Source: Chrysomallon squamiferum (Eukaryota; Animalia; Mollusca). From it: a stretch of 64,000 nucleotides of DNA. The notes under the pieces were generated by a model. That model made no database searches. It was given only the letters and a program-made list of their open reading frames with translations, and was not told the origin of the DNA. Below are positions 5,756 to 53,530 of this stretch, piece by piece; position 1 is the stretch's first letter; each line of letters begins with the position of its first letter. Position numbers and translations under genes: made by a program. The DNA lies in assembly GCA_012295275.1 (NCBI GenBank), contig CM022671.1:22134001-22198000 (forward strand), written 5' to 3'.

Positions 5756-15883
<10,128 letters not shown>

Positions 15884-24863: not shown

Positions 24864-27800
24864 ATGTCTGGGAAAGTGAAGTCCAGAAGTTGCGCGAACC
24901 CAGCTGACTCTGCTACGCAGTCACTCAACGAAAGAATTTTGAAAGAGTGTCATACACTTTACATCGATCCAGAGAACGGTATATTTAGTTTTTTTAATAT
25001 ATAATACGTTGCCAGACATATTAAAAAAAAAAAAAATTCATGTAATTTTTTTTTTTAAAAACCATTTGCGTAATGTATGCCCAGCCGATGACTCGGCAGA
25101 CGGCTAACGCAATTTCAATCACCTGGAATTAAAGTTTTAAAATTATGAGCTTACTTAGTCATCGTGCTGTAATTTATATCATAAAGTAAAATTTTGGAAT
25201 TTAAATATTTACTTTAATGTTAGTTTTGCCACTTTGCTTTTGTTTCTTTTGTTTCCAGACGAAATGCTATATATAAATCTGTCGGCAAGGTTTCCTCTCA
25301 GCTGATCAAAGGTCATAAAGGCCAATGACTCATGTGGTGTGGCAGTGAAATGTTGTTTTAAAAAAAAAATATATTATGTTATAATTAGTTAGCAGAAATA
25401 ATGATTAAAAATGTTTGTTTTCAGAAATGTACAAACTTCAAAAAAATATTCCTCTTTTTTTTTCTTCAAATCATTATAACAACTTTCCTACTAATTTCTA
25501 AGTATTTCCTTTTTTTTCTCATAATCAAAAAAAATATTAAAATGACTGAAAAGATAATATAAAAATATCAAGAAATTGACTTTCATCAGTTTTGTTTATA
25601 ATGGTATTAATGCAAAATACTGATGTCTGTCAAACTCGGCTGGTTATGAAAAGTAAACACAAGATGTTTTGCTTGCATGATTTTTACAAAATTAATTTTC
25701 TTATTCCTTAATTTGTGGATGGATAGGGAAGTTCGTAAGTGACACGAGAAAGTTAAATTAATGATAAATAATAATTTAAAAAATCGCCCCAAAATAAACT
25801 ACCATAGAAAATCACATAATCTGTAATGTTTCTTTTTAAAATGTAATTGTTTGTTTTTTTGAAAGTCCATTTGTATTAGGATTCTTTTGTTAAATTGTAT
25901 TATATACAAAAGATAAATAGCTATAAATTTATTATTAACAAATATGTTAATTTCATTTTTTATTTTTTTTTATTTTTTTATTTTTAAAGACAAAAACAAA
26001 AAAAGAAAAGTAAGACAGATATATAAAATAAACTTGTAAAGTAAAAAGAAAAAGATCTGTAAAATGTGATAAGCTTTACTAAAATCTGACACTTAACAAT
26101 GTATGGTATTTAATGAATGTTAAAATGGAAGGGACACAACTCTAGGTTCCTTGTATTTTGCAGATATTGTGTGACAGATTTGAACAGCTAACTTTTTTTC
26201 CCCCCCCAGAGTTCTAGGTTTTGTACAAAGTAATTTATTTTCTGAATAAATATTTTAACATTTTTGAAAAAGCAGTGGTTGAATTATATTTTGTAGATAC
26301 TGGGAAATGAAAATCATTTAATATTAAAAAAACCTATGAAATTTTTGTGTTACTCTAAAATGGATTATATATATAATGTTTAATGCTCTTTCCTGCAACA
26401 TACTGAATAATAAAAAGGAATTTCACTTAGCTAGTTAATCACAGTTTTATACAAGATAATAAATATTATAAAAATAGATATTAAAAGAAAGTTGAAAGTA
26501 TTTAATTACAGAAATGGATAAATATGTATCTTGTTTATTCTATAATATGATGATTTTGCATGACATGATGTATAAAGGTAACTCAACAATGGTCTTGTAA
26601 CCATAAGTTGAAAATAGACCTATGGTGCTGTTATAAGAATTAATTAAAATGATTTGGCAAATTGATTATGGAATTGGTTATTATTGACATTAAGTCTTTA
26701 ACTGAAATTATTTTTGTTTTCATGAAGACAGCTGATTATGATTATTTATATATTTACCCCCTCAAGAAAAACTAAAACCCTCTCCCTAAATAATTTTATG
26801 TTGATTCTATATGTCTGAATGAGAATAGGATTTCAAAAGGTAAATAAAAATACCAGAGAGGTTTTTTAACTGAGGTTTTTAACTGAGGAAATTACTGACT
26901 AAATTTCAAAAGCTGTGTGTTTGTTATTTTAAATTTTTTCTGATTTTAAGATAGTTTTTGAATGAAGTTGCTACAATTTTATGACGGATTGCTAGTACTT
27001 CTTGCACCTAAAGTAAGCAAAATAATTCCAAAAACAGTTTATGCAAAACAAAAAAACAAAAAAAGTCACAAAAATGTTAAATGCATCACTGCCCCTTTCT
27101 AAAGAAAAAGTGAAAAAATGGAACATGCAAAAAATTGCATTTTCTTTATATTTTGATAGAATTTATAAAACTGAAGGATAAATTTATGAACAACATAAAT
27201 AAATATATATATAGTTTTTAAAAATGTTAGTTTTTACTATTTAACAAAAGGTAATGTATATAAAACAGGACTAAGATAACAACTAAAATAACGGGTATAT
27301 GATATTTTTACTTGTTCATGTTATTTTTTTCTAGGTCTTGTCAAGATTGCAGAAAGTTTAGGTTTGAATCTGCTTGCTCCAAGAAAGAAAATATCTGTCC
27401 TGCTTATAGGAAATCATTCAGCAGGAAAATCCTCATTTATAAATTGGTAAGAAATTTTATGAGGATGATTAATTGTAAAATAAAAAAAACCCATTAGCTT
27501 GTACTTTAGATAAATGAAAATATTCTTGTTTAAACATAGTAAATTAGTACTTAGATGTCTTGATATATTGTGCCTTGCTGATTAATAAAAACAGGTAAGA
27601 TATTACAGAAATTTTAAACTTTATTGTTTGAGATATATTGCATTTGTGTTGGACACTGACAAAATATTTTTTATTCAAATGTCATTTGTTACTTATGACA
27701 GAACTGATAAAATGAATGAACATAAATGAAGATGTACACCTACATTTTAATAATTTATTCAGTTGTGTATAGGCAGCCCTGATATGTGAATATTGGTGTT

Positions 27801-30800
27801 GTATAAATAAATAATTAATGTACATGGTGTGTACTTATTGTAATGTGAGGTTAACATCATGAGAAGAAGAGCATGCTTCATGTTTTCAAAAAGTTCTTAT
27901 TTATTTAAGCAGATGATAACTTCCAATGATAACCAATGTCAGCAAATAATCTGATGGACCATTTATCAAAACTGCAAGACGTGGTTATGGAAAATCTGAA
28001 AAACAATTAATAGATTCCAAAAGAAGCACTTTATATACAATTTTAAATCAAGATGGGTTAAAAAATAAAAAGTACATTTTGTAACTTGAGTAAAATATGT
28101 TCCATTTAAATAATATACTTATTTATTCATTTGTTTAAAACAATTAGAAACAGTTTTTAATTTTTAACAAATCTTTAAAATATACACAGAACTTTCTAAT
28201 AATAGTTATTAAATAACATCAAAAAGATCAATCAAGTAGTAATAAGAAAAAAGTAATCTTGTGAACATGGTGCTACTTTTAAGCATGACATACTGGATGT
28301 ACAGAATGTCAGTCAAGCATAACTTGAAAATGAATTTATTGAACAGTAGTTTATTGGTTGGTTAATTTTCCTGAGAGAACCTTTATGAATGCATGCAAAA
28401 GATGAGAAATGTAGGAAGGTGATAAACAGTTAAAATACTGAAATATAGTTGGACCAAAATGCATGTGTTTATATTAGATACTCAATTCACAATTCACAAT
28501 GATATGAAAGATGGAGTATTGTTTATACTTTTATATTACAATGTAATTAGTTTTGTTTAAAATTAAGCAAACGTTAGATAAATTCATCCTTGTTTGTGTC
28601 TTACAATGTCCGTATTTTCTCAATAATGATTTTATTGACCAATTTTTTGGAAAGCAAAATATGATTTATGCCATAGTATTTCATTATTATCATTGCTTGT
28701 AAGATAGATAGAATTAAAATATTAAATTTAAAAAAAAAAAGCCATTGTGTGCAAGTGACAATTCCATGACAAAAACCTTTTCTTTTCTGTATTTTTTTTT
28801 TTATTTTTTTTTTATTGATAACTGTCAGCTAAAAAAAAAATCAGAATATTTGCTTATTTTTGAGTGTTGATGAAATCATATGGGTGGAAAACATGAATTT
28901 GTAAAGAAAGGCATTGGTCATGTCTATTGATTTAGTGTGGGATTTGACAAGATACCTTTTTGCTGTATACTGATTGTTAGTGTTCTAACCATTTTAATTT
29001 TAAATTATATAAATAATTATGGTGGGGGAAATAAAATGTTATTATATATGATTTATTCTTTTGTTGCACAGATTAATGCTTCTAAAAGTTGGTTGTAGCT
29101 GTAGTTGGAATTCAGAGAGCATTTTAGTTGTGATTATGAGTAAAAGTTCTTTTCTTTGAACCTTTACATAGCCCCTCAACAGTTTTTTTTTAAAATCAAC
29201 ATGATATCATCTATTTTCCAGTTTCCAATCATTATAAAGAAGTGCATAAAAGCTCCCCTGCTGATAACTGATAAGATTTTTTTATTGCATTTTTATATAT
29301 ATATATATATATATATAAAATGAGATGAACACCTAGTAAACATAGCTTGTTAAATGCCAGTAAACATTCACTTGATTTATAAATACACTAGTTGATCAGA
29401 AGCTATAGGTTTGTTGGATCTACATGTCTCTGCAGAGGATTAAAATATTTTCTTTTATACTTTGATATCCTAGTGTGTTAAATTGGTCATGGTTAGATAT
29501 GTGCATCTCTATCATTGGTTAAACTAGTCTGAAGAAGGCATAAATTTAAACAGTAAATAGGCAATCAATATTCCAAAACATCTGAATGAGTCGAAGGAAC
29601 ATTCTAAACCTAAACATTGTATGTTTTCTGTAACATCTCCTCTGGAAAATTTATCTGGATGCTGCTTGGTTGTGTATTAAGTAAAACAACTCATTCGTGG
29701 GACATGTCATTAACCTAGGTTAAGTTAGATTCCTTTTTCATATTTGATGGATTACTTGTTTGAGAGAAATGCAGTTAATTTTTATGACAGGACTGAATTA
29801 TGTGGTTTAAGGGAAGATATTTTTGTCCATGTAAATATGATTTACCAGCATTTAAATGTGTAGTACATTTTAAAAACAAAATATTGTTATTTATTGTTCA
29901 GTTTAATAATGCATTAAATCTGTTAGTACTGACATTTGTGCTTACAAAATTGTGTATATGGGTGACTGTTACATCCATACATGCACATACCCATATATAT
30001 GCTGTCATAACTTGAAGGTTTTAGACAAATAACTTTTAAAATGTCTGTTTACACCTTGTTTTTTTTTTTATCTTGCATGCTGTTTAATATGCAGTAATAG
30101 CAAAAACAGACAAAATACATTTAATATGCAGCATGGATTTATCAAATGCATAATTATTTTCAAATGCAGAGCATGGCAGAAACAGTGTATAATATTACAC
30201 AGTTATTTTTGTGGTGTTTTTCTTCATACAGATGTACCATTTTATGCAAAATGTGAAAAGAAAATGCACAATGTAGTACATTTAAATAGGTAATTAACCA
30301 TTTGATTTACCTGATTTGCTTGAAAAAGCATCTTCTACTAATGTATACAGTATGAAAAGCAGATAATGAATTTTCCCTTTCGTGTTCTATAAATTTTCTC
30401 AGGACCTTTTTTAATCCATGTTTAAAAAATATAACAACAGGGATTTATAATTACTTTGTTTTAAATTACTATTCTAAGAAGAAGAAAAAAAAAATCCTAA
30501 ATGGCTGGCACCAGATATTCAAGTAGTATATAATATTTATTTATGCAGCTTTCTTTGTGCAACAAAACTTGACAATGTAATCAATATTTCATCTGAATTG
30601 TGCTCAATTTTATAAGAGCCAGACAGTGGTGGGATGGGATAGCTATTTCTGAAGTACAGCACAAACTGCCAAATATCCTATGTAAAAATAATTCATTTAT
30701 GGCTGCTAGGTAGCAGCAGGTTCATGTACAATGCATGCTTGAGGTGCGGTGTACTGTTCCAAACATTTAAAAAAAAACCTACATTAGCACAGTTTGTCCA

Positions 30801-30833
30801 CACTATATCTGTATCTACATATGTGTCTATAGC

Positions 30834-30865
<32 letters not shown>

Positions 30866-30998
30866 TATATAATCAGTATCTAATATACTGCCTTCTGATA
30901 CTTCATTCATATTTAATTTTATCAGTAAATGAACAAAGGATTCCTTTTATTATACACCATATATAAATTATTCAGTAGAACTTCACTGAAACTAATTT

Positions 30999-31038
<40 letters not shown>

Positions 31039-31983
31039 TAGATAATGTGCATTATATATTTAAAAATATTTGTTTTATGAAATGAACTTGTTTCTTTGGT
31101 TAAAGAGTGCATTTAGTAAACTGACCTGGCTTTTGAGGTAAAACTCCTCAGAATTAAAAAAAGACTTCAGATTCTGTAAATGTAACACAATTTTGTTGGA
31201 TGCTGTATTTTATAAACCTACTGTCTATGGTCTGGTATGCCAGCCATGTGGCTACCTCCCTCACATGGATCAAATTAATCTGCTCCTGATAAGGTACATT
31301 TTCCTTTTTACTTAGTTCTTCATGTGATGTAACTTTCACACTCTTCTCTATTTGGGTTGGGTGAGAGGTCACTGGGTGAAATGTGGAAATATAAAGGCTG
31401 ATCAGCTGATTGCATGGTTGGTAACTGCAGTAGCTTCCAGACAGGTTGACCTCAAGGTAGGTCACACTGGCCTAGTTGACCAGACTGGATTAGCCAGAGG
31501 CAAACATTGTGAAGCAGAACTTACTAGAGGACAGTGTCTCCAGCCTGTGCCAGACAGAGAGAGAGATTTCACAGGCATATAGTATCAGATCAATACTCAG
31601 ACACTTTTTCTAATCGGATGATCTATCAGATTTAGGTAACGTACTTTCCGATGGATCTGTTCTTGCATAGTGTTGTATTTGTGCATTTTTGTATGCTATA
31701 TAATTTGCATGATCAGTTGATATTTGTGGTCTGTGATTGCTTTTTGCAGTGCTGATGTTAATCATTAATAAACTGTTTAATCGTGTTCATTGGTTGATCC
31801 TTATGTGGGACAGAACTGTTATTCCATTATTCTGCAATCAGAGTTCATGAAGAAACTTGAGCACTGTGTAGACAAAGGAGAAGTGATGAACATATTTTAT
31901 TAGTAATATGTCTGAGTATTTCATTAGCCAGAGCATGTATTTCACTGACTGTAATTTGCTGCTGCTTGCTGTGACCAATCATG

Positions 31984-32015
<32 letters not shown>

Positions 32016-32200
32016 AATTAAAAAAATTTATACATTAAAAAAAAAAAAAACACTAATGTATTAACAATAAAAAAAAATTGTGGATTTTTTTTTTTTAAAT
32101 CACTTACAGCTGCAATGTTTCTGTATAAGAAGCATTGTTTGCACTTACCCAAAGTAATGTTTTCCTTCATAAATTTTTAAAATTTAGTTAAAACAAGTGT

Positions 32201-32234
<34 letters not shown>

Positions 32235-35200
32235 ACATTCTTTATAACTAGATGTCTGAAATTAAATATGTCCAGTTATTTATAATTATAATTATTGTTA
32301 TAATACATATATTATATATATATTTTTTATATATATAAATGCTGCAACCATTTTAAAAACAAAATATGGTGATAATTTGATAAAATCCTGTGTGGTAAGT
32401 TGTAGCTGAAGTGAAAAATGATAATACCTCATTTAGAGGTTTAGGGATAAAACGTTCTTTGACAACATCATAAATTTGTTTAATGTTTCTGTAAATTTTG
32501 TTGTATTTTCCTTAACATTTTATTTTAAAAAAAAAATGTTATCATTGAATCAGTTATTCATAGTTTGTGTGTTTTCTGTAGAACAGCTATGGTGTATGGA
32601 AAATCTTTAAATATAAAATTGCTGGAAATGATTCTGAATCAACAGATTGTTGTTACCTCTCTGGCAAAAAAAAAAACACAACAAAAGTAACTAATTTATG
32701 TGTCTAGCAGTATTTGCTATCAAGACATTTAAAATAAGTTAAATAAAAGACCAATTCTTTCCACTTAAACAAGTGTGTGTGGTATAATCGATGAAGGTGG
32801 TTGATCATGTCCTGTCTGGGGCATGGTCACACAATTTGACATTTTAAAATAGACTGTCTCGCCATTTTCAATAAGATGTCTCACAGGATCTTTCGACTTT
32901 CGTGAAAAATATTGATTCAGACAAGATATTGGCAAATATGCATTTCTGGCAGAGTATGCACCGACATCTGTATGATACTGCCAGCTTGTAGCCAAATTAT
33001 TTATTATTGTAGAATCAGCATAGACATACTGTTAGGTGATTTGTGGTGTATGACCAGACCACACTGCTCTAGTGATTCCCACTGATTTACAGATCATCTG
33101 TTTGAATTTGGAAAATTGTTTCAAACAACTTTGCACTTTTTTTTTTGGTTTAAATGTTGTCTGGCAGTTGATTGAAACGAGGGATGATGGCTGATCATTG
33201 AGAGTATTTTGTTCAGCAAAATATCTTTTTGCATTTTTGTCTTGTCTGGTTGTGTTTCTTACTAGTGGGTCACTAGTGAATCATTTTGTTTGATGGTCAA
33301 GATTTTATTTCTTTATTTCTATTTTAATTTTACATTAACCTTTTTAAAAACAATATTGAATACATGTATAAAATTTTAAAAAAAAGAGGAAATATTTTGA
33401 CTGGTTATGTTAATTAGTGAACTGTCCTTTACTGTAATACTTTTTTCTTTTGTTTGCTGAATTAATTACATTGACATGCATTATGTCCTTTGAAAAATAT
33501 TTTAACAGTAGCAATAATTTAAACCTGTAACTGCATTTTTCTATTAAAGTAACAGAATGTGTGTGTCTTGTACACAAACATTCTGTTACTGTATGAATGC
33601 ATGCAAGCATGTACATAACTGGATTTTGATAAAATATTATTAAGAAATACTATATTTTTTTCCCTGTCTATAAAATAATTTTGTTATCAGCTGTTATTTA
33701 AATACAAAACATGTTGCTATATTATTGATAATTGGATTCATTTATATTACTGGATTTTTTGTTTTAAAAACCCAAATGGCACCATGATGAAATAATTGAC
33801 CCACCTAAGTGGTACTAAATAAACCATGTTATATTAGATGATTTGCTTGGCATTATATATTTCTAAGTAACTGATGCAGCTGAAGTTAAAATGCACTAAG
33901 ATGATGACTAAATAATCTTGTGTAGAGATATTATCAAGGCAGTTTTAAATATACATCAATCAGATAAATTAGTATTTATGTAATCATTGTCATGATTGTT
34001 ATACCTGTCATTTCACTGCACTAACAATGACCTTTGTATTTTTATTGAAGTTTGATTCTTCATTTTAAATAAATTTATAAACCTTTCCTTTTATACTGTA
34101 ATAAATCCAGTTTGTTTCCTTTATGAGTATTACTGCATCCTTCCTGGCAAAATGCCATAAAATAAAATTTTCAAAAAGGTGGGGGGGGAGGGAGAGGTTG
34201 GAATAAATTTGAGGGGCAAGAAAAAAAAAATTAATTTAAAAAATAAAAATAAAAAATTACAAAAATTGTTTTACATGAATCATTCTAAAGTACATCTTTA
34301 AAAAATCTAAAGACTAAAAAGGCTACAGAATTTAGGTTGTGGATGCAGTTAACTGATTGATTTGTGGCAGATCAATGCAGACATATGAAACATGCTGTCA
34401 GAATGTGCATATTTCCTCATTTCTTTCTCTGCTGCATTGCTAAATATATATTGGATTAGTGTCAAGAATTTGCTGCTGCTATGTCGAGTGGAATGTCCTA
34501 AGTGCAGGCCCTGTGGTTACTGAATACATGTGATGTTTGAGTGTGAGTTGCATGAATTCCATTCTGCACTAAATATTTGTAGTGACATTGGAAACCTGAA
34601 TTTTATGGCCTTACCCAATTAAGGTTCAGAAAACTTTAATCTTATTTATTATTTTTTTTAATGAAAATAAAATATGAATATTTAATATTTTTTATTTATT
34701 ATTTTCCTTCTTTTGCTTAATGTTTATAATTATTATTATTTTAAATAAAACCATAAAATAATGTATCTTTATGGATCATATCAAGGTCATTCCTTTTCTG
34801 TGGCATTTAACTTTTGTTATTGATTCTATTTTAACAGAATAATTCCTCTATCTTTCCTTTGAAGTTTTGAACTTTTAAACTGTCAATAGAATGTTAAATA
34901 TTCAGGGAACAGTCAATTTTAGCAAATAAAAAAATATTAAGTCAGTTACAATTTGGTACCATCATAGCAGTTTAAACAGTTGTAATATCAACTGTAGTAT
35001 ACATTAAATCCAGTATGTAATATCTTTTATATAGGGAATTAATAAAAAGATAGATATTTAATATGACAATAAACTTATTTTACTGATTAATAAATAAAAA
35101 ATGCTATACACCATAGAATGTAATTTTGCTGTTGTTACTTATAACTTTTGTGACAAACATCTCCTTTAATAATGAGTTGTTGGACAGTGGTACATTGGAG

Positions 35201-35872
35201 GTTTGATCCTGAATTCTGCAGGACTTGGGTAAATGCTGTTTTGAAGGTGTTGGAAAGATATTTCAAAGTTTGATTAAAACAGACATTGCACCAGTCATAA
35301 GACATCTATGTTACACTTGAAAATTAATGTTGCACTGATCATCATTGTTTTGATGTGTTAACATAAACATTAAATGTTTTTCTCTGACCAACCACTAGAA
35401 AATTATCATTTTGCTGACTGACTTTGTACAGCTATAGAAGATTTCCCTTGTGAAATTAATAACCATAGCTTTGCAAGTAATTTAATTTTGATACTTAATG
35501 AAATATTTAATAAAGAGGTGGTACTCAGAAGAGAATCAGTTTTTAAACTAAATTTTATACATGACTTGCTACAAGTTCTAAAAACATTTGATTGATATAA
35601 TTGTATTAATGTTGCAGGTATGTTGAGGAGCATGTTCAAAAGACAGGTGTAGCTATTGAAACACAAGGTTTCACTTTTGTCACTAGTGGAAGGAAGAGAG
35701 AATCACTCACGGTACGTTTCTTTCAAAATTTAAATGTGATTCGTGACTTTTTTTTCCAGTTCTGTTGATTTTTTACTATTCAGTATTCTTGTAAATTGTT
35801 AGATGTATGCATGAATACATGCATGTATGTATAGATACATATATAAATATTTATCGCATACATACACATAGT

Positions 35873-35905
<33 letters not shown>

Positions 35906-35918
35906 GTGTGTGTGTGTG

Positions 35919-35982
<64 letters not shown>

Positions 35983-38900
35983 TACATATATATATACACA
36001 TTTATTTTTATATATATATGTACATTTATTTTTACATACATGTATATATATATGTATGTATGTATGTATTTTTGGGATAAAATGCATGTGCACATTTCGC
36101 ATCTGTATGTTTGATTATTGCTCAGTGGCTGTCAGTATGGTTTTTATTTAGAAAAGTTATTATTTTGTTCCAGTGTTTATCTGAACATACTCCATTATTT
36201 CTCTGGAGAAGTGTTTTGTCATTTGTAAATGCTTCAGTATATGTAGATTTAACATTGATTAAAATGACAGTATTGAGAATTTTTCACATTAAAAGTAATT
36301 AGTTATTACCTGATTAGAAATTCTGTATTATTTTATAGTTTTTTTCCCTTTGTTTTGTTTTTTTCTAAAAATAATAATAATAAAAAAGTGTTCTGGTATC
36401 ATTTGCACAAAACTAGTGAGACTAGTTGCTTCTTGCTTTAGCTCCAGTTTTTTTTATAATTCTGACTTTCTTCATTTGATTTATCTAAATTTGATTTACT
36501 GAACATAATGTTTCTAATATGCTTAATATAAAAAAAAAATGCCTGCATGCATCCTAAAATATTATTTCCACTTAAATGTCTGTATTTGAAATGTTAAACT
36601 TACTTTGAATCATCATCCAACTGTAACTTTCTTTTTCTTTTTCCCTTTTTTCTCTTTTTTTTTCCCAGAAGTAATCACTAAAGAATGAAACACTGCTAAA
36701 ACAGTAAAAATAAAAAAGTGCACTTAATAAAAAGCTTCATCCTGCTGAACTCTATTTTCAGTTAATTTGTTAGTATCTAATAGCTGATAATCCAGTTAAA
36801 AAATTCGCAACAGAAATTGCTGAAAAAGGTAACTAATTGCATTATGTTTTTTTCTGAACATTATTTTATATCAAACTGTTCTTTGGTTCATATTTTTATA
36901 AAATACCTGACACAGCTCTCTTTTCATATACACAAATTAGGAACGGTAAAAAATTATTGGCTCAGTGAGGTTCTGGATTACAAAGCATCATTCTTACTCT
37001 TCATAAATTATTTTAAAATTAATTTTAAAAAAGTTAACAATTTGGTGAGATGGTAAGTAATTTAAAGCATTTTTCATAGTGTGGTAATAAAAATGTTCTG
37101 CAGATTTTATTATTCATACTGCTTAATTAAGTTTCAATTTTTTTTTGCTTTCCTGGTAAGTATAAAAATGTTGACAATAACAATGTATATGTTAATCATT
37201 TTGTGAATTTCTTAAATCTCCCATTAAATTTTATTTAAGCTTTTGTATTTTGACAATTATTTGACATTGAAATGCACAACCTTTAGCATGCTTAACATTT
37301 AAGTTGAATGCCCTGTTTAGTTTGTTTGAATGTAGTTCAATCTTTGTTGTGACTATCAGTATTTACTTTGTTAAAATTATGCACAAATGTTTTATGCAAT
37401 GAATAACTGTTATTTAACAATATCAAAATATAACTTGAGGTTTAAATCACAATATTTGGTATCTTTGAAATATACATAATAAACGAAAAAAGAAATCTGA
37501 ATATAAATTTTGCTATTTTGTTTTCAATATAAATAGCTCACCTTTTTTTTTTTTTTTTTTAAAGTTCCTAATTTTTCACTGTTGAAGATATAATTATTAA
37601 ATTATGTAAGAAATGTCTGACAATGGTAAAAATGAATTAAAGTTGAAATATCCATTTTAAATACAACAGTACATTTTGTTCAGATTCAGTCATTTGGAAA
37701 AATTATTTTGCAGCTGGAAACAAGTAAAGAATATTGTCTTTTCTTAGCCTTCAAATGGGATGTATTTTAAATCTGTTTTATTAATGAAGTTAATAGCATC
37801 AAAGCCAGTAGTGGCCCAAGCATCTAAAACTTATGTATACATAATCACACTGAGGAGAAAAGCATACAAAATGTCATTAATTCATGAGTAGCGAATAATG
37901 GCAGCAAATTTCCTTTTGTCATCCAAAATCCTTAGCTTTAACAATTAAGGTTTAATTAAATATTAATTTTATTATAATAATAATAATACGTTTAGCTGTA
38001 AATAGTATTTATTATAAAAAGTTGTGATGCAAAGTTGAACAATTTTAGTTTTTAGAAATGTGAAAAGTGAGCATAGATGGTTTAGATTAAGCTGTCTTTG
38101 GAACAGAATTGTTTCAGTTTAGTAATCTGTAGATAAAAATTAGCCTGTGCAGTTTTATTGAATTTCAGACCATTCCCAAAGGAAGTGCTAACTTCTGTCA
38201 TGTATCATTCTTCAGTATCTGTTTAATGCATAATTACATAAGACTGGAATAAGATTTTAAAATTTCTTCAGTATTCACTTAACATAGACGTAATATTAAC
38301 CTTTTTGTTTTTAATGTACATCGATCAATATGGATAAGACTGAACACACTGCATGACGGAATAGTCTTGGTTTCTTTAACATGTAGACAGGCAAGCGAAG
38401 CAGTGAATCCTAACAAATGAGATAATTTAGATTGTCTGTTCTTTTGCCAACATCAGAGACCAGACAAAGAAATCCTTGAGAAAAAAAACTACCTATGTCT
38501 GGTCATTATCCTGTTTCATCATTTGAAACTTCATGTGAGGTTTTTAAAAAAAAAACCTAAAAAAAAATGTGTTTTTCTTTTTTCCTTCTCTTCCATTTGA
38601 ACTGGTATTCAGATTAAAGTAAGAATAATAAAATGTCAGAAAAATAAAAAATCACTTATTACTTAGTTTTTTATTAGGTGGAAAGAAAATGGCTAAATTT
38701 GTAATTTTTTTTCGAATGTTGTAAAAAAAATTCATATTGAACATTTTACAATTTTTTCAAATAATTTCTGGCTTAATGCTTGTGAATTTTGAAAGATCAA
38801 AATTTAGAGAGTTGAATTAATTAATCTATTTAAAATCTAGGAATGTTGGTTATCAGAACAGGGTTAACTGATATGTTAACAATTCAGTGTTTTACAGCAG

Positions 38901-41900: not shown

Positions 41901-44900
41901 ATAATCAGTGCTTGTACTTAGCACAGCTTAATCCATTTGTGTTATATGATTCAGTTTTTAAATTTTTAATAATAAAAATTACAACCAGAGAAATAAAATA
42001 ATTGAAAAACAGCTAATTTAAAAAAATGCATATGAATGGTTGATTTGACTAGCATATGTGCATTTCATCTTGCACACTCCATTGTGTCTGAACAAGATAT
42101 TTTTATTCACTGTGGATGGTATTGTTAGAAGTTTGAAAATAGCAGGAATGAATTCCTTTTCACTTGATCACTGAATTGTTAAAGAGCGAGACAGTGCTGA
42201 ATTTTGGCACTCATGTTTTCTTGTACTCTTAAGTTAACTAATTGCATCGTTGTTGAAAAGATGACTGTTCTGCAGTGAAGAAAAATAAATAAAAATGCAA
42301 GGTATATAAATAGGTGGTAACAAACAGTTAATACTTCCTGAAGCACAGAATTGTGAAGTATGTTCAGTATGCCACTGCTGAGATATCATGCGATTTATAC
42401 TACACATCTACCAGTACATGGAGGTCAGAGGTTTATAGAGTGAATTATCCTTGGAATTCTTTACAAACCTAATTTCAGTCATTACCTGTACAGCTGACTG
42501 TGTTGTTTAAATGTGTCTGCTTGAACAGTATGCAGCAAAGCTGAAACTGCAGTCATATTCAGCAGATACAAACCGTGCTGTTGGAGATATAATAACCACA
42601 GCTAGTCTTGTATACCCTTGAATGTGTCAGCTGCTGTCAGTCAGTTCATTGACCTAATGAAGTTTAAAGGTACAGACAGTAGTGGAATATTTTTAACGAT
42701 AAAGGGCAAGTTGGGGATTTTCCCTCAAGTTTCACCGTCTCAGTTTATGTGGAAGTGCATGTCTGTATGTAATAATTGATTTTTTTTTTTTTGGATTTTC
42801 TTCTCATAATGTTTTTTAAATGAAGCCATATTGAAATTCATTGATGTTGAGAATTGATAGAAAAATGCTGTGTCAGCATGATTCAGTATACGTGGTGTGG
42901 TTGTCTTGAAGTTGAGTTGTTTTTCTGCTAAAGGATATTATTTTCTGCGTATCTGGCTGCAGTGAATAAAATTACTTCCAAAAATTATTAAATACAGACA
43001 TGTTTAATGTGTCTGGGTTAGGACAGAATATTTTAATGTGCATCCAGACACATTATTGATATTTAAGCATTAACAATTGCATATGATAACAGAAAGATTG
43101 AATACAGTTATCAGATAAAATTATACTGTCAGTTGATAAAATCATATCCTTTACTTAATTTTTTTTTTCTTATTTAGTACAGTTGAAAAGGAATTAGTTA
43201 TATTAAAAACCTAAATGAAAAATAACTGAAATTGTTTATCTTTAGCCTTCATACTTTAACATGGGTAAAAAAAAAAAAAAAAAAAGAGGTCCACATTCAG
43301 GTTTTGAATTATTAAAACATTGTTTAAAGTTTAGGAAAAGAAACTAACAAAATTTTATTTTTTGTTTTATTGAAGCTTTAATTCTGTTGCTGACTTAGAA
43401 ATATTTACAATTTTAATTTATCTGAGATTGTCATTATATGTTTTTAGGTTTAATGATCAGTTAATTTAGAAGCAGTGGACTTGGTTTATTGTTCTGAAGC
43501 AGTGTAGGATTTTAGGATTACTGCAGCATACTTATTGAATATTACTTTTCAACCATTGCATCATAACTGATGTGTTGTCCTGTCGGTGGAAAGTTTAAAT
43601 AAATAGTTATTTGTGACTAGTAATGATAGAATTTTTTATAATTAATTAAAGAAAAAAAAAATACATACATTTAGTTATTAAACAAATATTGTGTTACTCA
43701 TGCTGTGTACAAGACATCTTAAAAATGACAATTAACATTTCCAGATCATGACCATTCTTTGGATATGTTAGGCTGTTTCAGATTGATGCATATAAACAGA
43801 TATTTATCTTAAAAACAGCTACAACAAAAATAACCCATTCACATCCAGATGATTTCATGCAAAAATAAAAATGTCTGAGTATGGTTATTATATTTATTGA
43901 TGTAAATATATATGTATCGCAACAGTTTCAGTAAAAACACACTAAAATACCTTTCACTCAGTTATGGTTTGTAATCATACAGTAATTATCAGAATAGGAA
44001 AGTTTCCCTCTCAAATTTTTCCAGTAAAAAAAACCTAAAACCTACGTTAATTATAATAAAATGTAGTCTACTAATGTAAGTGGTTATTTATCATCGGACC
44101 ACTTCAGTAAGTAATCAAACAATTGTATAATCAAACCCAGAGCAACTAAATGTTCTAAACAAAACAAATTCAGATAATTTGTGTTTCAGTAGGTAAATCA
44201 TGCTTGGCTACCTGTTTAGTTATTGCTGGTTGATTTATAATCATATCCTGTTATAATGGATAATCACATAAATTAATGTTAACATTTCTGTTGTTCACTT
44301 TTGTCAAAAAAAAAAAATTAAAAAAATTAAAAACAGGTTGTTCTGTCTTTGTATGTAAATATTATTAACATATATTATATATTGTTTTGCAGGGAAATGC
44401 AACCCTCCATCTGTATCCTCATTTTGAACCACTCCGCCAAATTGAAGGTAAGATCATTCTGTCAGAATATTTTACAGTAATAAACAGTTAAGATTTAAAA
44501 TATTTATTTGACATTTTTCTGACAGAAAGATGTGTTGGGTGCTCTGATCTGTATAAAGAATTCAAAGAAAAATAACAGTTGTTTATTTTATGTATTTAAA
44601 AAAAAAAAAAAAATTGTAATTCCTGCACATTCTACACGATAAACCAAAAAGATTTTGTAAAATTTTGTTAAGAGTTTGCTTGCATATGCTCCATCTTTTA
44701 TCTGTAAACAAGTTTTTTGCCTAGATGTGATATCATTAAATATTAACTTGACATTTCAAACTGACTGTTTCAAAAACTGAACAACAAAAAAAATAAAAAT
44801 AAAGAAACAAAAATTGAATTCTTCTCGTCTTGCTGCAGGATATTTATATGAAATGTTTCATTTAAGTTTCCTGCTAAATTATTTAATTGAAATGATGTTT

Positions 44901-45261
44901 GGCATGCACAGTAAATGTTATGCAAGCGGTATGACATTCCCAGGGTCTTAAAAAACAAGTAGTTTGAGGAACAGACAAAATAACAATGCATGGAATGTAA
45001 TGAATTTTGTGTAGTCGTTTTCCTGCTGCTGAAATTGTGACTTCATTCATTTGTAGTTACCTAAAATATTTGTTGACCTTCAGGTCTGTGCACTTAGTCA
45101 ATACGGATCCATTCACTGGAGAATTTTTCTCAACATGTTTCAAAACACTCAGTCTTTTGAGTGCAAATAATGTCCGTGCATGTTAGAACCTTGAGCCAAT
45201 TTGTATCATCTCGGAAAAAATCAATAGTTTGCTTAGCTTTTGTGTTGGCCAGACAGACATA

Positions 45262-45304
<43 letters not shown>

Positions 45305-48300
45305 TTATAAGAAAGGTACTCTTAGATTGAGAAAGGTGAGGATTTTTTAAAATCATGTCTGGGCAGGGCCTGGTGCCAAGCAAATTTCATTAAATTTACA
45401 ATTTTGACATCTTTCTGTCATTGCTTTTTAATTTACTATTAATTCCTGTTATATTTTTGAAAAAAAAAAAAAGAAAAAAAGAAGACAATTATAATAAAAA
45501 ATGAAACATGTATATATTATTTTCCTATATTTTCTTTCATTTTTTTAATTTAATTTTCTTTATAATTTTATAGTCTTTCACAGGAGTTTTATTTAAAATT
45601 TATTTTAACCCCACATGGTTGAAGCATTTTGTTTTATAAAAACCAATTTAATAATAAAATTAATTTCTTAATGCACAGCACTTACAAAAAAAACTCCGTA
45701 AGTTACAAACATAATAAGAACACATATAAAAATGTTTTATCTCGTTATTACATCTGCTGCTTTATCTTACATTGTTACTGGTTTGGTAATTTACAAATGC
45801 ATGTACCAGTTACTGGAATCTACAGCATTTTGACATTTACATAATTTACCTATAAAATAAAATTAATTAAGTGAAAATATACATACACATACTAACTTGA
45901 TAAAAAAAAAAGTATAATAAAATAAATTCTCATAAGAAATTCAGATTTTAAAGAATCCCATGTGTTCACAAAATAATAAAAATTCTTCCATACAAATTTT
46001 TAATACCTACATGGTCAAACTTAGGTTATTGGATAAGTTACATTTGACTGATGAGATTTGTGGACTAGCTAATACGTGACATAACATTACAGTTAATTAC
46101 AGACTGGTTATGTTTTATTATTTCCCCAAAGAATATGTGTATTACAGAACCCTGGTGAATAATATGACTATTGACACAAACTTCCACAAACACTATTGAT
46201 ATTTTGGCAAGGTAATAAAGCTAATGAATGCATTGCATCATAGTTTTTGATATAACCAGGCCTTGGATTATTGGCTAGAGGTCTGACTTGAGTGAATTGT
46301 CCAGTTAATATAGCAACTGGTCAGCCACAGGACTTGAGCTTCAGTGAAGTAGAGGTTTGGATTGTTTTTCCACAATTCTCAACAAAAAGTAAATTTTTCT
46401 TAAAGCAGAAATTTGAATTGACATTTTATTTGATACTGATTTTTGTTTTACAATTTTAAATAGAAAGTTGTGTCACAAAAGGCCAAGGCAGAATGAAAGA
46501 TTATTAATTTTATTTATTTATTATTATTATTATTATTTTGTTCGTTGCAGGTGTGACACACTGTTTCAGATGTTATTGTCACTTTCTGAGCAATAATTAG
46601 AAAATAAATGTTGCTAGATTGGTTATGAAATACTGTGATGTCCATTAATATATTATCTTGATATTGGCGGCTTTTCATGTGGCAGTCTTGTGAAGACACA
46701 TCAAGCTGCCTGATGAAGAGCTGTCCAGTGTACAAGAAAATACTACACATTTTTAAAATTTCTTTTTACATCGCAGAAAATGAAGAAATAACAAAGAGTT
46801 TGTGTGTCATTATCTGCATATATAATTGTTGAAATGTAATAATGTACATTTAAAATGAAGTAGTATGGTGGAGAGAAAAAAAAAAAAAAAGAAAATCAGC
46901 ATACACAACCAGTCATTATTTATAATTATTTAGCTTTCATTTTAATTTCAGTTCAATGGTTAGGATTACATAATTAATTTATTAATCATTTTCATTTTCA
47001 TTCTTTTTTTGTTTTTACCATACAATGACAATAATATTGAAATAATTATCTGTAAATTTAAGAACCTCCCCTCTCAAAATATCAATTCAAAATAACACAC
47101 ACACTGACACATCATTTTTTAAATCATTGTCTAGATATTTAGTTCCTTTTTTCCTTTAATCCGAAATTTGAGTTTTATTATAGAAGTTCGGTTTAGCTAA
47201 GTGAACAGTTAATTAAAAAGGCATATGTCTCGAGTTTTGATGGATGTTGCCGACTGCCGCTCTTCCTTTGGTCAGCTATCGTTCCACTACAGAGAGCTGC
47301 CAAATGAAGGGCTGTGATTGGTGACAACAGCGACTAATGATAAATGTTGACAGAGTTGATGACTTGTGTCTGGTTTCAACTAATTAACTCTGTTCTAATG
47401 CAGAGCAGACTTGTATACATGTATTCAAAATTATAGTAATTTATTGGTAATAAAGTAGCAGTGAAATACAATGAATTTAGGATTTAATTATGAATTTTTT
47501 GTTTTGTTTTGTTTTTTACATTTTTGTTAATGTTGAGGTAATTTTAATTTATGGATTTAAAAACATTTATGTTTACTACTTTAAATCACTGCTTTATACA
47601 TTCATTAAATACCTTGTGAACGGTTTTATCTTTTGGCATCATTCTGTATAAGAACAGGAAATGATAAAATAATATATAATGTGTTGCATTTTCCTTATCA
47701 GTTGTTTGGAATTTCAAGCAAATTTTAAATGGAGAAACTTAAAACAAAAATGATGTAAATATATAACTTTGTTTTACTTCAGTTCTTTATTTAGCTGCTT
47801 CTGTTTTTATTTTTAGTTCATTATTATTGTTATTGGTGGTGGTGTTGTTGTTATTATTATTATTATTATTGTTAATTAAAAAAAAAAAAAAACACAAAAA
47901 ACCCCCAGCAAAAAACACAAAAAACTTAAAAAATAAATCCCACCACAACAACAAAAAATAAAATAGAGATAAAAAATAAGTATCTGGTCTTGAATAGTTC
48001 ATAATTTTGGCCAGCTAGATATTTTACTATCATTGCTTTTTAGCTTTGTTGATATGTTGTCATTTTATGTGTATGGTGATTTTTATAAAATATACCTTGA
48101 AAAAGAAAATGTAAAAAAAGAAGTGATTCATTTTTTTACTTTCCTGTTAATTGTTCCGGTATTTGATCAAATGCTCCACTGCTGAATTGTTAGTTGCATT
48201 AATCATAAGCTGATAGGAATAGTATTATTGATGGAGTAATATCATAAATAATGGTTGCAGCCCACAAAACAATTTTAAAAATAACAAATTCTTTTCATTG

Positions 48301-48856
48301 TTGGGACTAAACAGATAATAAAAAACATATTTATAATTTAAAAACAATTGTTGTCTTACATCTCAAGCTGAATGCTTTCTTTTGTATGTCTGTTGCAGTG
48401 TGCTTTTGCATGTAAAAATCAAATCACGCTTATTTTTCTTTTTCTCAGGGGTTGTTGACTACCTGCAAACAGAAATCTCAACATCAAAACAAAAGAAATT
48501 CAGCTTGGTTACATTTGTCGATACTCCTGGTCTTGTGGATGGTGACATGAAATATCCTTTTGATGTCAACGAAGCTATCTTGTGGCTAGGTAAGAATATT
48601 TCCTGATTTTTTTGATTGTTTTGTTCTCTTTTTTGTGTGTTAAAAATGAAAATATAAATGAAAAAATAAAACAACAATACACACCCACCCACACATACAG
48701 ACAAGAAAAACAATTAAAACACAACCCAACTCCTCCAAAAAATTGTTTGGCCCATTTAGTGCTTGATTTGGGATATGGTTTTGTCCATCAAACAGAAGGT
48801 TAATTACTATAAATATAATATTTAAAAAATTTGTTATTGTTTAAATGCTAGTCATA

Positions 48857-48893
<37 letters not shown>

Positions 48894-51800
48894 CTTTTTA
48901 TAATTCTCCCTCTCCTGCAACCATATCTCCAGCTTTTTTTACAATTAAGATCCTTGGGGGGAAAAAAAAAAAAAAAAAATACATCTAAAATAAAATAAAA
49001 TAACTAAATAACTAAATAAATAAAGAAAAAAACAACAACAAATAAAAAGCTTCCAGTCATGTTTCTTTTCAAATATGGTGTCAGAACCCACACTTAAAAA
49101 CAAATTAAAATAATAACACAATGATTTAATTTCAGACAACTTGTGGGCACAGAGTTAAAGTAATTTCAGCTTGATTATGAATGTATTTGGCATATAATTG
49201 AACAGTCTAGCATCATACAAAAATCAATAACAGTGTAACGAGGCATTCTGACATTGTGTTCATTGTTGGATGTCTGATACCCACCCACCACCTTTCACTG
49301 CTCATGTCGTCATGACCAGTCGTGATATACTCACCAACAAATATGATTCACATTCCAACAATTCTGTTGTCAGTAAAATACCATCAGAAAGGAATACTGG
49401 TCAGGTTTAACTACACCTTCCCCAAATAACTTCTTGGTGGTTCTGCCAAAAACAAGCAGAGATGGAAAAAAAAGAAAAGAATTAAAATGAAATAAATTTT
49501 TAAAATGTGAAACTTGGATACATTTGGAACTGTCTGATATATTTTTTGAATATGCGAATTCAGTTGTTAGATTCTTTCTGTTAACATTAAATGTATATAA
49601 ATATTTATTGCGTTCGTGTTATTTCATGAAACATTTTTAAAAAATAAAATAATAAAAAATAAATATAATAACTGTATCTGAGGTGGAAGATAATTTAACA
49701 TCCAGTACTTAGTATTATTCCACCAAGTGGCCATTAATTAAAAATTATATTTGATAAAAACAATTTATAAAAAAAAAAAAAAAAAAAAAAATTATAGGAA
49801 GAAATAGAAAGAAAAAAATAAATAAACTGGAAAAAAAAAAAAAAAAAAAAAAAAATACCCTGTCACCAAGAAGTAGTCCAGGAGTAACTTTCTGAAAATA
49901 AGATGCTTAAATTTATTTATAAATTTTCTAGGTGACATGGCAGACTTGATTTTTGTTTTCTTTGACCCCATTGGCCAAGCTTTGTGTAAGAGAACTTTAA
50001 ACATAGTGGAACACTTAAGTGAGAAACATGCAGACAGGATGAGATTCTATCTTAGCAAGGCAGATGAAGCAGGACATGAAAGTGATAGACAGGTAAAAAA
50101 TAATAGAAAATTATATTATTACAATATTTGTCTTGTATTCTGAAATTATATTTTCCAAAAATAATAGTTTACAAATTGATAATGCTGCAAATTTTAAAAA
50201 AATTAAAATGAATTTTCATTATTTCAGTTTTAAACTAATTAATTTTTAATTGATATTTCAGCTATATTTATTTGTTTCTTTTTCAAAAATATGCTTGAAA
50301 TAATGTTACTGTTAACAAATATTCATGTCTGTGCAATGTTTCGTTGTATGCAGAGAGTTATGATGCAGATAGTGCAGGAATTGTGCAAGCGACCTGGATT
50401 AAATAGAACTGGCTTTGACATGCCCACCATCTATATCCCAAGCATGAATCCAAAGGTATAAAATTATATGTAATAACTAGAAATGAAGAACACATTGAGA
50501 GCATTTTCATGAAGTGATAGCATATATAGCATATATAACTTACAACACAATAAAGTAAAGAAATAAAAAAGAAATAAAAATTATCAGTTGTACTGATAAA
50601 TAAAACATGTTTTATAATAGATTATCATTTCATATATTCAGCAATATAAAATTTATATATTTTTTTTTATGGATGTAGAATTAATGAATATGAATGTATT
50701 TTACACTGAATATTGTTGGGTTTTAATTGTTTTATTGGGTTATTGTAACTGATGTGTACAAGAAATATGACATTATCATTAAGCTTCATTTAACAGGCAA
50801 GTCGATGTGCTAATCAGATAGATCAGGTTTGTAAAGATGTGGAAAAAACAATAAACCAGACCATTCAAAACACACTGAACACACTGGAGAAAGACTGTGA
50901 CCAGATTGCCAACATTGTGGAGAAAAAACTGAAAGAAGACAAGTAATTATTTTAATTAATTAATTAATTTTTTCAGAATTTAAAAAAGAAAAAAAAAAAA
51001 AAAAAAAAGCAATTAATAAACCAATATAAATTCAGACATAAAAAAAAAATATATATATATTTTGTTAGCATTGATACCATTTTCATAACTAAATGCATTT
51101 ATCTTTGCAGTGAAAAGAGTTCTAAAAATATGAAAGCAAGAATCCGTGGATTTGTATTTGGTCTTGTGGGTTTGTTGCTACCACTGTTACTATTAGCAAC
51201 CTTCATGATCAGTACCTCCCACAAAACATTACAGAAATTACTAGGGGAGTCACTAGTTGTTACACTTGGGACATACCTCGTAAGTATTTTAATATAGAAA
51301 ATAAATCCTAGTAGCATCATAATGCAACAACAACAAAAACTGTTAATAACATTAAAAACAAAAAATGCATATTCATTAGTTCATCAAGTCTCATCTCATT
51401 CCATATTTGGGGAATTTCTTTTCTTTTAGTTTAAATTAAAACAAAAATTGTAAGATGTTCATCATTAAAATATAACCAATATTGTAACATTTTGGAACAG
51501 TAATAATCATGAAGGATATTATCCATTTTGAAACAACATTAACAAAAATATTCAGATATTGTCATATTTTTATTGCTGTAATTAAATTTATATTTCTAGG
51601 GTCCATTTGCAACTTTATGGCAGCAGATCCCACCAGCCTTTGCTAATCATGTTATCATTGGAACATTAGTCTTAGCCTTGATAATGTTAATAATTGGCAA
51701 ATTTTTCTCAAGGTAAACATTTTCTTATTCTTCTCTTTTAATTTAAAATTTTCACGCTGAGTAATGATTATGGGAATTAGTATAGTACACCCAGTGATAC

Positions 51801-53251
51801 ATGATTCTTATGTATGGCTGAGCTTTGAGCAGAAACTGGTGCTGTTGAATGTGTAAATGTGTCTTTATTTTATTTTATTTTTTAATTCAGAGATGCTTGA
51901 AATATCAAAATTTTAAACCAATTACTAATATAACATTTATGTCAAATTGGTAATGAATTTTAGTGGGAGTTAATTTCAAGTAAGAATACAGTTTTTTTAA
52001 AAGGTTCATTAATTAACAATTGTAAAACATATACGAATGCAGTTTATTATTCAAGACTTAAAAAATAGTGTAGCAAATATTTTTTTTTATGTAAGAAATG
52101 GATTTGAGTTGGCTGAACCCAACTTACTGTGGACATTTCAAGATTGTAGAAAAAAACCCCTTAAAAACCAAAACAATCAGTGCATTAACATGTGAAATAA
52201 ATATATTTTTTGTGCAAGAAAATAATTTAAGGAAACTCTACCTGTGTAATCAAACCAAAATTATTGAATGAATCCTTTCAGTAAAATCACTGTATTAACA
52301 TCAGAAGAATGGAAATGTCAGCAGCGACTTTGTTCATTTTCATTATATATCTGTTGGATTCTGAATTTAGGATTGTATATAATACATACATGACAGTTGA
52401 AAGTTTATCCATTGCAGTGCAAATGGCTTTCATATCAAACACTGGTATTTTTATCTTTATACAATGAAACAGAAATTAGGAGTTATGTAGACAAATAAAA
52501 TGTACATTTAAATAGTAAAATATCCTTTGTAAAATACAAGATACAAAATTTACTGAATAGTTAAAAGGAATTATCAAAAAATTACCCTCATTATTATGCA
52601 CTAAGATTTTGATATTGTTAACTGCAGCTGCGATAAAAAATCTTTTATTAGCTGACATCATTACAGATTGATTAGAAACTAGTTTTGTTTTCAGGACTGC
52701 ACCGACAATGAATAGAAAACAGAAGAAAAATCTTTTGGAGATCAGGGATTATGTGCAAAATATAGTCAAATCGAAAAAGGTAAATTTGTTGTATATATCA
52801 AGTAAATTGTTGTTTGTTTGCAATAAAAAAAAAATAATACCTACAACAGCAATTTTATTAAATCAAAAAAACAAAATGGCATTAAAGCAGTAATGACCAT
52901 TATAATAAAAGTTTTAAAAAATAAAAAAAATATGAAAAAAAAAAATTATTCGATTTTCAAGAACTAAAAGAAAAATTATGTAATTCTTAAAGTATTTTTT
53001 TTTCCTAAACATGTTTTTCTTTTAAATAGTTTTTTTCAAACCTGCTTCAGTTTAGTTTTTTTCTTTTGTTGTGCCATCATTTTAAATTCAGTTGTACATG
53101 AAACATTTGAGTAGTTTTGAGTTTTATATATACAATAAGTAACAAATCAGTATGTAGATGTTGTTATAACATTTTTTATTATTTTTATTTTTTCCAGCAA
53201 GCTTTATACCAAGAATATCTTAAACAGAGTGTGGCTGACCAAGATTTATAA
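24864..53251 (+). CDS. EHD/dynamin-like P-loop NTPase with C-terminal two-TM hairpin, no EH domain (448 aa, 12 exons)
   Basis: Exons: 24864-24978, 27335-27446, 35618-35711, 44393-44447, 48449-48589, 49932-50092, 50354-50455, 50797-50942, 51111-51279, 51600-51712, 52695-52779, 53198-53251. All introns are GT-AG and phase-consistent (1347 nt). G1 GNHSAGKS, G3 DTPG, G4-like SKAD. Hydrophobic segments [21 protein letters not shown] and [19 protein letters not shown]. Confidence 0.93.
31340..31641 (+). promoter_or_regulatory. Intronic promoter/enhancer-like island with nuclear-receptor elements
   Basis: GGGTGA-g-AGGTCA-ct-GGGTGA (31359-31379, DR1+DR2), TATAAAG (31390), TGACCT-N6-AGGTCA (31447-31464, ER6) and a donor-like AG|GTAACG (31636). 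GC content is higher than in the flanks. Confidence 0.4.
35820..36070. repeat. Compound (TA)n/(TG)n/(CA)n microsatellite
   Basis: Directly visible; source of several YIYIYI ORFs. Confidence 0.95.
46656..46737 (+). ncRNA. mir-745a: miR-745a hairpin (Mir-22 family); mature 3p ~46704-46726
   Basis: The 3' arm AGCTGCCTGATGAAGAGCTGTCC matches molluscan miR-745a as I recall it. It pairs with the 5' arm GGCGGCTTTTCATGTGGCAGTCTTG (46666-46690) across an 11-nt loop. Apical UGUG and a CNNC (CTAC 46743) ~17 nt after the 3' arm. Confidence 0.95.
47245..47329 (+). ncRNA. mir-745b: miR-745b hairpin (Mir-22 family); mature 3p ~47294-47315
   Basis: The 3' arm GAGCTGCCAAATGAAGGGCTGT matches miR-745b as I recall it. 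It pairs with the 5' arm TGCCGCTCTTCCTTTGGTCAGCTATC (47255-47280). Basal stem TGTTG/CAACA and CNNC (CGAC 47331). Confidence 0.95.
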
Positions 53252-53530
53252 ATCTGACAAAGAGAGACAATTCAGTTCAAAGCCTTCATTTTGCACAGTA
53301 ACTTTGGAACTGTTTAGAAATAAGTTGATACTATCATTGACATAAACTTACGTCTATACTATATGTATTAACTATTGTTATTTCTGTTATTTCATTGAGG
53401 TTAATTGCTCAAAATATTTTTTTTTTTTTTTTCATTTTTTGCATAAACTATTTCTTTAAAACTTGCAGTAATTTTTATTCTGAATTTTAATAAATACAAA
53501 CTTTGCAGTATTGGTAAAATAGGTCTAAGC

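Follow-up and report, generated by a model that had tools for sequence, protein, structure and literature searches.

Transmembrane (TM) segments at the tip of a helical bundle are found in the dynamin-superfamily members atlastin, mitofusin, and BDLP (PMC5084822). In the bacterial proteins most closely homologous to EHD and sarcalumenin, the G domain is followed by a pair of TM segments (PMC7016017), and the MfnL family is reported to include Trypanosoma brucei, protist, and PVC (Planctomycetota-Verrucomicrobiota-Chlamydiota) or proteobacterial homologues. In the accessible text of the MfnL report (bioRxiv 10.1101/2023.06.28.546890), the T. brucei protein, TbMfnL, combines a G domain and a pair of adjacent TMs with a 41-residue presequence, which it needs, and is oriented toward the mitochondrial matrix; its overexpression raises mitochondrial branching, for which the P-loop lysine and the TM pair are required, and in the same passages the authors state that they did not find the MfnL architecture in opisthokonts or plants. 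Here we describe a gene of the mollusc Chrysomallon squamiferum located on the + strand between nucleotides 24864 and 53251 of a 64,000-nucleotide stretch, referred to as the window (assembly GCA_012295275.1, contig CM022671.1, positions 22,134,001 to 22,198,000), whose 448-amino acid (aa) product has an EHD-class G domain followed by two predicted TM segments. The layout itself is known from bacteria (PMC7016017) and MfnL (bioRxiv 10.1101/2023.06.28.546890). A separate pan-eukaryotic lineage including animals appears to be undescribed; the Ectocarpus 'RME1L' or the 'ancient paralog' group of the MfnL paper (stramenopile, alveolate, and haptophyte) may include the family.

The gene consists of 12 exons in AT-rich eukaryotic DNA (G+C content of 23-33% per 2 kb) and forms an open frame from the ATG at 24864 to the TAA at 53251, exactly the limits of the original prediction, which had been made on the letters of the window. 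All 11 introns are GT-AG. Judging from the exon phases, additional exons had to lie between 27446 and 48449, and these were located at 35618-35711 and 44393-44447. The resulting protein is 92% identical, with zero gaps, to a natural 448-aa protein from Gigantopelta aegis (P0002), and its alignments with the 60 full-length proteins compared all extend over the entire length (58.8-92.2% identity), except that three of them begin 18-37 residues in. A tblastn search with protein P0046 as query recovered the 12 exons in colinear order. The gene is confirmed as real, and the seven motifs quoted in the original prediction are all encoded on the + strand, two of them split across splice junctions.

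Exons 1 to 5 are defined by the model and by homologues. Exon 1 (24864..24978, aa 1-39) includes the ATG and, in the predicted fold, the first helix of the helical bundle; exon 2 (27335..27446, aa 39-76) includes the P-loop GNHSAGKS at 27409-27432; exon 3 (35618..35711, aa 76-107) corresponds to the switch I region; exon 4 (44393..44447, aa 108-126) aligns with the region of the EHD KPF loop, the motif being absent; and exon 5 (48449..48589, aa 126-173), whose 3' end is also seen in loose ends of RNA contigs, encodes the G3 motif DTPG and a shortened EHD signature. The model and RNA both define the remaining exons: exon 6 (49932..50092, aa 173-226) with the G4 motif SKAD at 50054-50065, exon 7 (50354..50455, aa 227-260) with the helix equivalent to EHD alpha6 and the end of the G domain, exon 8 (50797..50942, aa 261-309) with the long stalk helix of the predicted fold, exon 9 (51111..51279, aa 309-365) with the first predicted TM segment by hydropathy (TM1, aa 324-342, 51154-51210) and the start of the loop, exon 10 (51600..51712, aa 366-403) with the second (TM2, aa 383-401, 51651-51707), exon 11 (52695..52779, aa 403-431) with the basic start of the predicted C-terminal helix, and the coding part of exon 12 (53198..53251, aa 432-448 and the TAA). 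Introns 2-4 are long (8.2, 8.7, and 4.0 kb) compared to the 3' introns (0.17-1.3 kb), and no nested gene was identified among the GC-richer open frames of 27447-48448.

The 3' part of the gene is present in five sequencing runs, four recorded as RNA, from two studies. Three RNA runs of one study and one run of unrecorded kind were placed on 49870-53700; the junctions among exons 1-5 are based on colinear homologues. In all three RNA runs the GT-AG joints of exons 6-7, 7-8, 9-10, 10-11, and 11-12 agree with the model. The 8-9 joint is not part of the joint table and is supported by crossing contigs, one per RNA run, with three expected bases between both exons. Loose ends extend from exon 6 into exon 5, a single 1,637-nt RNA contig bears exons 6-10 and 12, and RNA contigs run on beyond 53500 as 3' untranslated region. 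The run of unrecorded kind includes none of these joints and has a continuous contig over 51069-52815. In transcripts the G-domain exons are joined to both exons encoding hydrophobic segments, and the objection that exons 9 and 10 might not be spliced to the G domain is thereby refuted.

The assignment of the G domain to the EHD class, made initially from its motifs, was borne out by sequence and fold searches. The best Protein Data Bank matches are EHD2 and EHD4 (E 2e-18), that of mitofusin-1 being weak (E 0.018). An AlphaFold model of the G. aegis protein was built from 60 sequences (mean predicted local distance difference test 77.9, predicted template modeling score, pTM, 0.67) and places helices at 21-46 ahead of the G domain (about 58-245); a single helix at 267-344 continues into TM1, the loop contains two short helices, and TM2 at 377-401 precedes a final helix at 410-442. 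The top five Foldseek matches of this model, the check that had been proposed with the original prediction, are EHD4 and EHD2. The best of 48,161 chains was open EHD4 (Z 23.8, root-mean-square deviation (rmsd) 4.0, 316 residues aligned, model 20-442 on 19-403), and Z values to EHDs range from 23.8 to 24.2 over 315-316 residues. Next after EHD4 was MFN2 (Z 17.2, rmsd 10.3). Truncated mitofusin-1 matched with Z 18.4 (rmsd 6.8, 314 aligned), and the truncated MFN1 and MFN2 matches, with Z 17-18, span residues 19-442 of the model. The C-terminal helix likely closes a composite bundle of the EHD type in this model, instead of being a free tail. The helices ahead of the G domain, the stalk helix behind it, and the C-terminal helix are predicted to make up a single bundle that carries the membrane anchor at its tip.

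Hydropathy peaks of the 448-aa protein are found at aa 324-342 and 383-401, 40 residues apart and followed by the basic tail, so that the stalk helix, the two TM-like segments, and the tail are arranged as had been described. TM segments were called with a 19-residue hydropathy window, not a topology predictor, and close members were limited to a length of 430-490. Two hydrophobic segments follow G4 in nearly all close members (129 of 130) and in 51 of the 67 divergent ones; by the same rule, environmental EHDs have zero segments in 25 of 29 cases and one in the other four. TM1 starts 109-111 residues past G4, and the membrane-inserting Phe322 of EHD2 is 103 residues past G4 according to the passages available from PMC13427840; as modeled, the membrane anchor would begin about where the EHD lipid-binding tip lies. 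Lysines and arginines per residue (n = 185 proteins) number 0.24 ahead of TM1 and 0.34 behind TM2, compared to 0.08 within the loop. This concentration of basic residues on either side of the TM pair is consistent with a cytosolic position of both ends. Conservation is lowest in the loop, at 0.20, the G domain having 0.59. As the original prediction held, there is no EH domain: Pfam gave no EH, EHD_N, or DUF5600 match in three of three relatives, and the protein ends 47 residues past TM2.

The family can be compared with three groups of known proteins. With EHD1-4/RME-1 and sarcalumenin, which provide the closest solved fold, it shares the P-loop serine and, as predicted, the composite helical domain; as in EHD, the long helix would touch the membrane with its tip. 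This contact is a predicted integral anchor in the family and a peripheral tip in EHD, and the EH domain, the KPF motif, and an equivalent of W238 are missing from the family, whose G domain is about 21% identical to that of EHD and forms a separate clade. As in mitofusin/Fzo1 and BDLP, the G domain is predicted to lie between N- and C-terminal helices that belong to the same bundle, with TM segments at the bundle tip. Mitofusin has a second helical domain between the G domain and the membrane. The family differs from mitofusin and BDLP in that it has no such second domain, in its size (~450 vs 700-850 aa), and in its EHD-class G domain; only ~110 residues, in one helix, separate G4 from TM1. 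The order of G domain, short stalk, two TM segments, and C-terminal helix is that of atlastin/Sey1/RHD3. A P-loop arginine (also missing in Sey1/RHD3) and an RD-type G4, the marks of atlastin and GBP, are absent, and the tail is predicted to be part of an EHD/mitofusin-type bundle and not a free amphipathic helix, so an identity as atlastin was rejected. No atlastin, Sey1, or GBP entries were among the matches listed in three fold searches, which does not by itself exclude them. The likeness to atlastin noted in the original prediction is superficial.

A search for bacterial two-TM relatives of EHD recovered 153 of 201 pattern matches, of which 80 loci, mostly from PVC, Myxococcota, and Proteobacteria, were kept; the GNHS pattern on which the search relied biases this set. 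A further search gave 1,458 such proteins. We infer from matching taxa and layout that this set, which does not include TbMfnL itself, is MfnL-type. MfnL is the closest studied relative of the family. Both MfnL, or the bacterial set, and the family have an EHD-class G domain, a long helix, two C-proximal hydrophobic segments, and a C-terminal region; the family shares with the bacterial MfnL-type proteins the G4-to-TM1 spacing (110), a size of ~440-460 aa, and, in the sampled set, a GNHS-type P-loop. On the other hand, the loop is 38-40 residues long in the family and 7 in the bacterial proteins, the tail 47-49 as opposed to 94, G4 is S/TKxD as opposed to NKxD, and the alpha6 YG..W pattern kept in bacteria is lost. 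Unlike TbMfnL the family is without a clear presequence, and it has members among animals, chytrids, and green algae, three groups for which the MfnL paper reported no such protein. The profile match between the family and the bacterial set (E 9e-44) covers residues 18-304 only. None of 232 family members scored better on the bacterial profile, with medians of 604 and 103 bits that differ partly by construction. Identities between G domains are 25.5% (family-bacteria), 21% (family-EHD), and 32.5% (bacteria-EHD). No widespread partner was detected as a shared neighbor gene in the 80 bacterial loci, the largest clusters being frames that overlap the gene itself. In three Verrucomicrobiota loci (L004, L026, and L048) the EHD-like TM gene adjoins one or two larger dynamin-like genes with the P-loop GPLKSGKST, possibly hetero-oligomeric sets.

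Phylogenetic trees, in which EHD rows were environmental sequences classed by motif and no eukaryotic MfnL was included, place the family outside both the EHD/sarcalumenin clade and the sampled bacterial clade. In a tree of 75 G domains, family, EHD, and bacterial sequences fall into one group each (Shimodaira-Hasegawa-like approximate likelihood ratio test supports of 99, 100, and 89). A 48-row mixture-model tree, from which 28 rows including the window model and several long branches were dropped and to which one sarcalumenin fragment was added, gave a three-way split (family 89/77, EHD and sarcalumenin 86/98, bacteria 90/85). The 75-domain tree, built under LG+G4, unites EHD with bacteria (82). 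Approximately unbiased tests reject neither family with EHD (p 0.36) nor family with bacteria (p 0.58), and rooting with four other bacterial dynamin-like proteins failed; a quick mixture tree set the outgroup among family rows. These comparisons would make the family a third lineage, related to MfnL but distinct from it. Concerning the possibility, raised at the outset, that the protein belongs to a characterized family of the same topology, a sister with this layout does exist in MfnL, and the family is not nested in the sampled bacterial members. Four environmental EHD-clade proteins (L153, L163, L174, and L175) have one strong C-terminal hydrophobic segment and cluster with L108 in the tree, which suggests that a membrane anchor was gained separately inside the EHD clade.

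A search with exon 6 alone gave 1,117 proteins, a profile search 1,279 of 7,996 scored candidates, and an exhaustive search 245 representatives at E<=1e-30. Of 30 divergent representatives looked up, 17 had an organism name, and these include animals (teleosts, Callorhinchus, Nilaparvata, Graphocephala, and Orchesella), other opisthokonts (Hartaetosiga, Pigoraptor, and Chytriomyces), and the remaining eukaryotes Clastostelium, Gefionella, Hemimastix, Tetraselmis, Hemiselmis, Aphanomyces, Barthelona, and isolate TZLM1-RC. We take these to represent animals, choanoflagellates, chytrids, amoebae, algae, oomycetes, and metamonads, and the distribution suggests an origin of the family at or near the last eukaryotic common ancestor. 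Mammal, Drosophila, nematode, and land-plant names were not seen in the lists, which were ranked by likeness to the mollusc and do not imply absence. No relative was found in plasmids, none of 59 pattern matches in viral contigs was confirmed as a relative, NCBIfam gave sub-threshold matches only and Rfam none, and an Atlas search with the C-terminal part returned nothing beyond the family itself. The original prediction had found no named gene for this protein; a functional name is indeed missing, but the family includes the named and unstudied fish genes si:ch211-11k18.4 and si:dkey-98f17.5. A 1,376-aa fish database protein (P0471) includes a family sequence at 432-824 and is probably a merged gene prediction.

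The G1-G4 motifs are intact and conserved. Six residues (G64, S67, K70, S71, D150, and G153) are invariant among 57 diverse members, which makes it likely that the enzyme is active; D217 is kept in 56 of the 57, P54 in 54, and P255 in 53. G4 has the form SKxD in 177 of 217 and TKxD in 28 of 217 family sequences, with a following residue that is mostly E or T, not M; NKxD is found in 117 of 120 bacterial and 51 of 59 EHD sequences. A review ascribes the use of ATP by EHDs to the EH tail occupying the G4 aspartate and the methionine that follows it. Both tail and methionine are missing in the family, a combination that leans to GTP, and many EHDs among the compared sequences are likewise without that methionine; on present motifs, GTP would be modestly favored over ATP. 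The EHD alpha6 YG..W pattern is absent from the family, and [KR]PF is found in one of 231 members. In EHD, interfaces 1 and 2 are built from the alpha6 tryptophan and the KPF loop (PMC9741607). A homodimer prediction of residues 15-320 scored 0.01, which favors neither a dimer nor a monomer.

A permanently anchored EHD fold without the EHD polymer interfaces would, by analogy, most likely work like other TM-anchored dynamin relatives. The reading that we prefer, to which we give about an even chance, is that the protein is a cytosol-facing and likely GTP-driven tether that joins or branches organelle membranes. It would be anchored in an organelle membrane by the two predicted TM helices, with both ends cytosolic and the ~40-aa loop either in the lumen or embedded in the far leaflet, and would be a monomer in the membrane because the constitutive dimer and filament interfaces of EHD are changed. 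Nucleotide binding would order the switches and let G domains pair, in trans where two membranes meet. Cation-assisted hydrolysis through the invariant P-loop serine may then be followed by a movement in which the bundle swings, as in EHD, about the conserved prolines 54 and 255 and draws the anchors together. The endoplasmic reticulum or endomembranes are slightly favored as the organelle over the mitochondrial outer membrane.

Several points weigh against this tether. Among the divergent members, 16 of 67 depart from the two-segment layout, with one segment in 10 and three in 6. The fold comes from a 92%-identical relative, with a pTM that reaches only 0.67, and its single helical bundle would have a reach far shorter than that of mitofusin. 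Within the helix equivalent to alpha6, Q231 is kept in 55 and Q234 in 48 of the 57 diverse members, and these residues could form a different stable dimer. EHDs keep the G4 aspartate and yet use ATP (PMC5084822). Knockout of TbMfnL is without a shape phenotype, and direct fusion is not established, as far as the accessible text of that report goes (bioRxiv 10.1101/2023.06.28.546890). The literature search returned no experiment on any family member.

The same anchored fold could instead belong to a membrane-resident EHD that polymerizes in cis into rings or filaments making, holding, or cutting the curvature of tubules and necks. The closest solved folds are indeed EHD4 and EHD2, the anchor is located where the curvature-making tip of EHD sits, and TM1 carries a proline in 32 of the 57 diverse members next to a loop whose amphipathic helices in the model could act as a wedge; EHD filaments are, however, built through the dimer tryptophan and the KPF loop, both of which are absent here, and the family branches outside EHD, so that we regard this scaffold as rather unlikely. 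A counterpart of MfnL on the matrix side would account for the layout, the profile match, the G4-to-TM1 spacing equal to that of bacterial MfnL-type proteins, and N-termini that are mildly basic. It is hard to reconcile with an N-terminal extension of ~20 residues (median of 218), when the presequence required by TbMfnL is twice as long, or with the finding that none of 66 divergent members passes a crude composition rule for mitochondrial presequences and that no member prefers the bacterial profile, and it is accordingly improbable.

A role in membrane repair or cell-autonomous defense at damaged or pathogen-containing membranes, as in some bacterial dynamin-like and IRG/GBP proteins, also has a low probability. 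Such roles are reported for bacterial dynamin-superfamily proteins in the passages available from bioRxiv 10.1101/2023.06.28.546890. An apparent loss in mammals would suit a dispensable function, but evolution is very slow, as judged from the identities to the 60 full-length close relatives, and there is no sign of expansion among the matches listed. Fast evolution and expansion are typical of immune GTPases, unlike the family. Returning to the tether, a broader proposal is that it represents an overlooked animal membrane-fusing GTPase beyond atlastin, mitofusin, and OPA1, present in the last eukaryotic common ancestor and lost in mammals, which together with MfnL keeps the anchored ancestral state from which EHDs would have evolved when a peripheral tip and an EH domain replaced the TM pair. 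We put it forward as possible but doubtful.

Animals have few known dynamin-superfamily proteins with a membrane anchor, each of which defines the fusion machinery of an organelle. A slow-evolving family found from metamonads and algae to fish points to a membrane-remodeling job that is unassigned, and the two named genes are available in zebrafish. The family qualifies the published absence of the MfnL layout from opisthokonts and adds a third lineage to the question of whether integral membrane proteins gave rise to EHDs. If the protein is indeed a tether of the kind that we prefer, animals would possess a type of membrane-joining enzyme that has been studied in trypanosomes alone. A literature search, with most subscription papers outside its scope, returned no study of the family; the fish symbols yielded one table row, in the part available of PMC3530609, where sarcalumenin is the best human match of si:ch211-11k18.4 at only 2e-5. 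For the terms queried, no passage on TM-bearing relatives was found in a 2026 EHD review (PMC13282721), and the passages available from PMC8565484 include nothing on the family. Sarcalumenin-type proteins were left out of the trees in PMC11789081, according to the part of it available.

Other genes are found on both sides of the locus. Exons of a 4-hydroxyphenylpyruvate dioxygenase (HPPD) gene are located at ~9500-13000 on the + strand, that at 12784-13002 matching HPPD structures (E 2e-27) and the others being recognized by eye. On the - strand, a 211-aa open frame at 22510-23142 with a CCCH zinc finger (Pfam sub-threshold, E 2e-6) is divergent from the gene described here and ~1.7 kb from its ATG, so that a shared promoter is possible, and 59602-59802 is an exon of an SLC6/SNF sodium:neurotransmitter symporter (E 3e-9). 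Repeat scans of the window detected only microsatellites and one minisatellite, which is located at 14733-15191 and consists of 15.5 copies of ~29-bp units.

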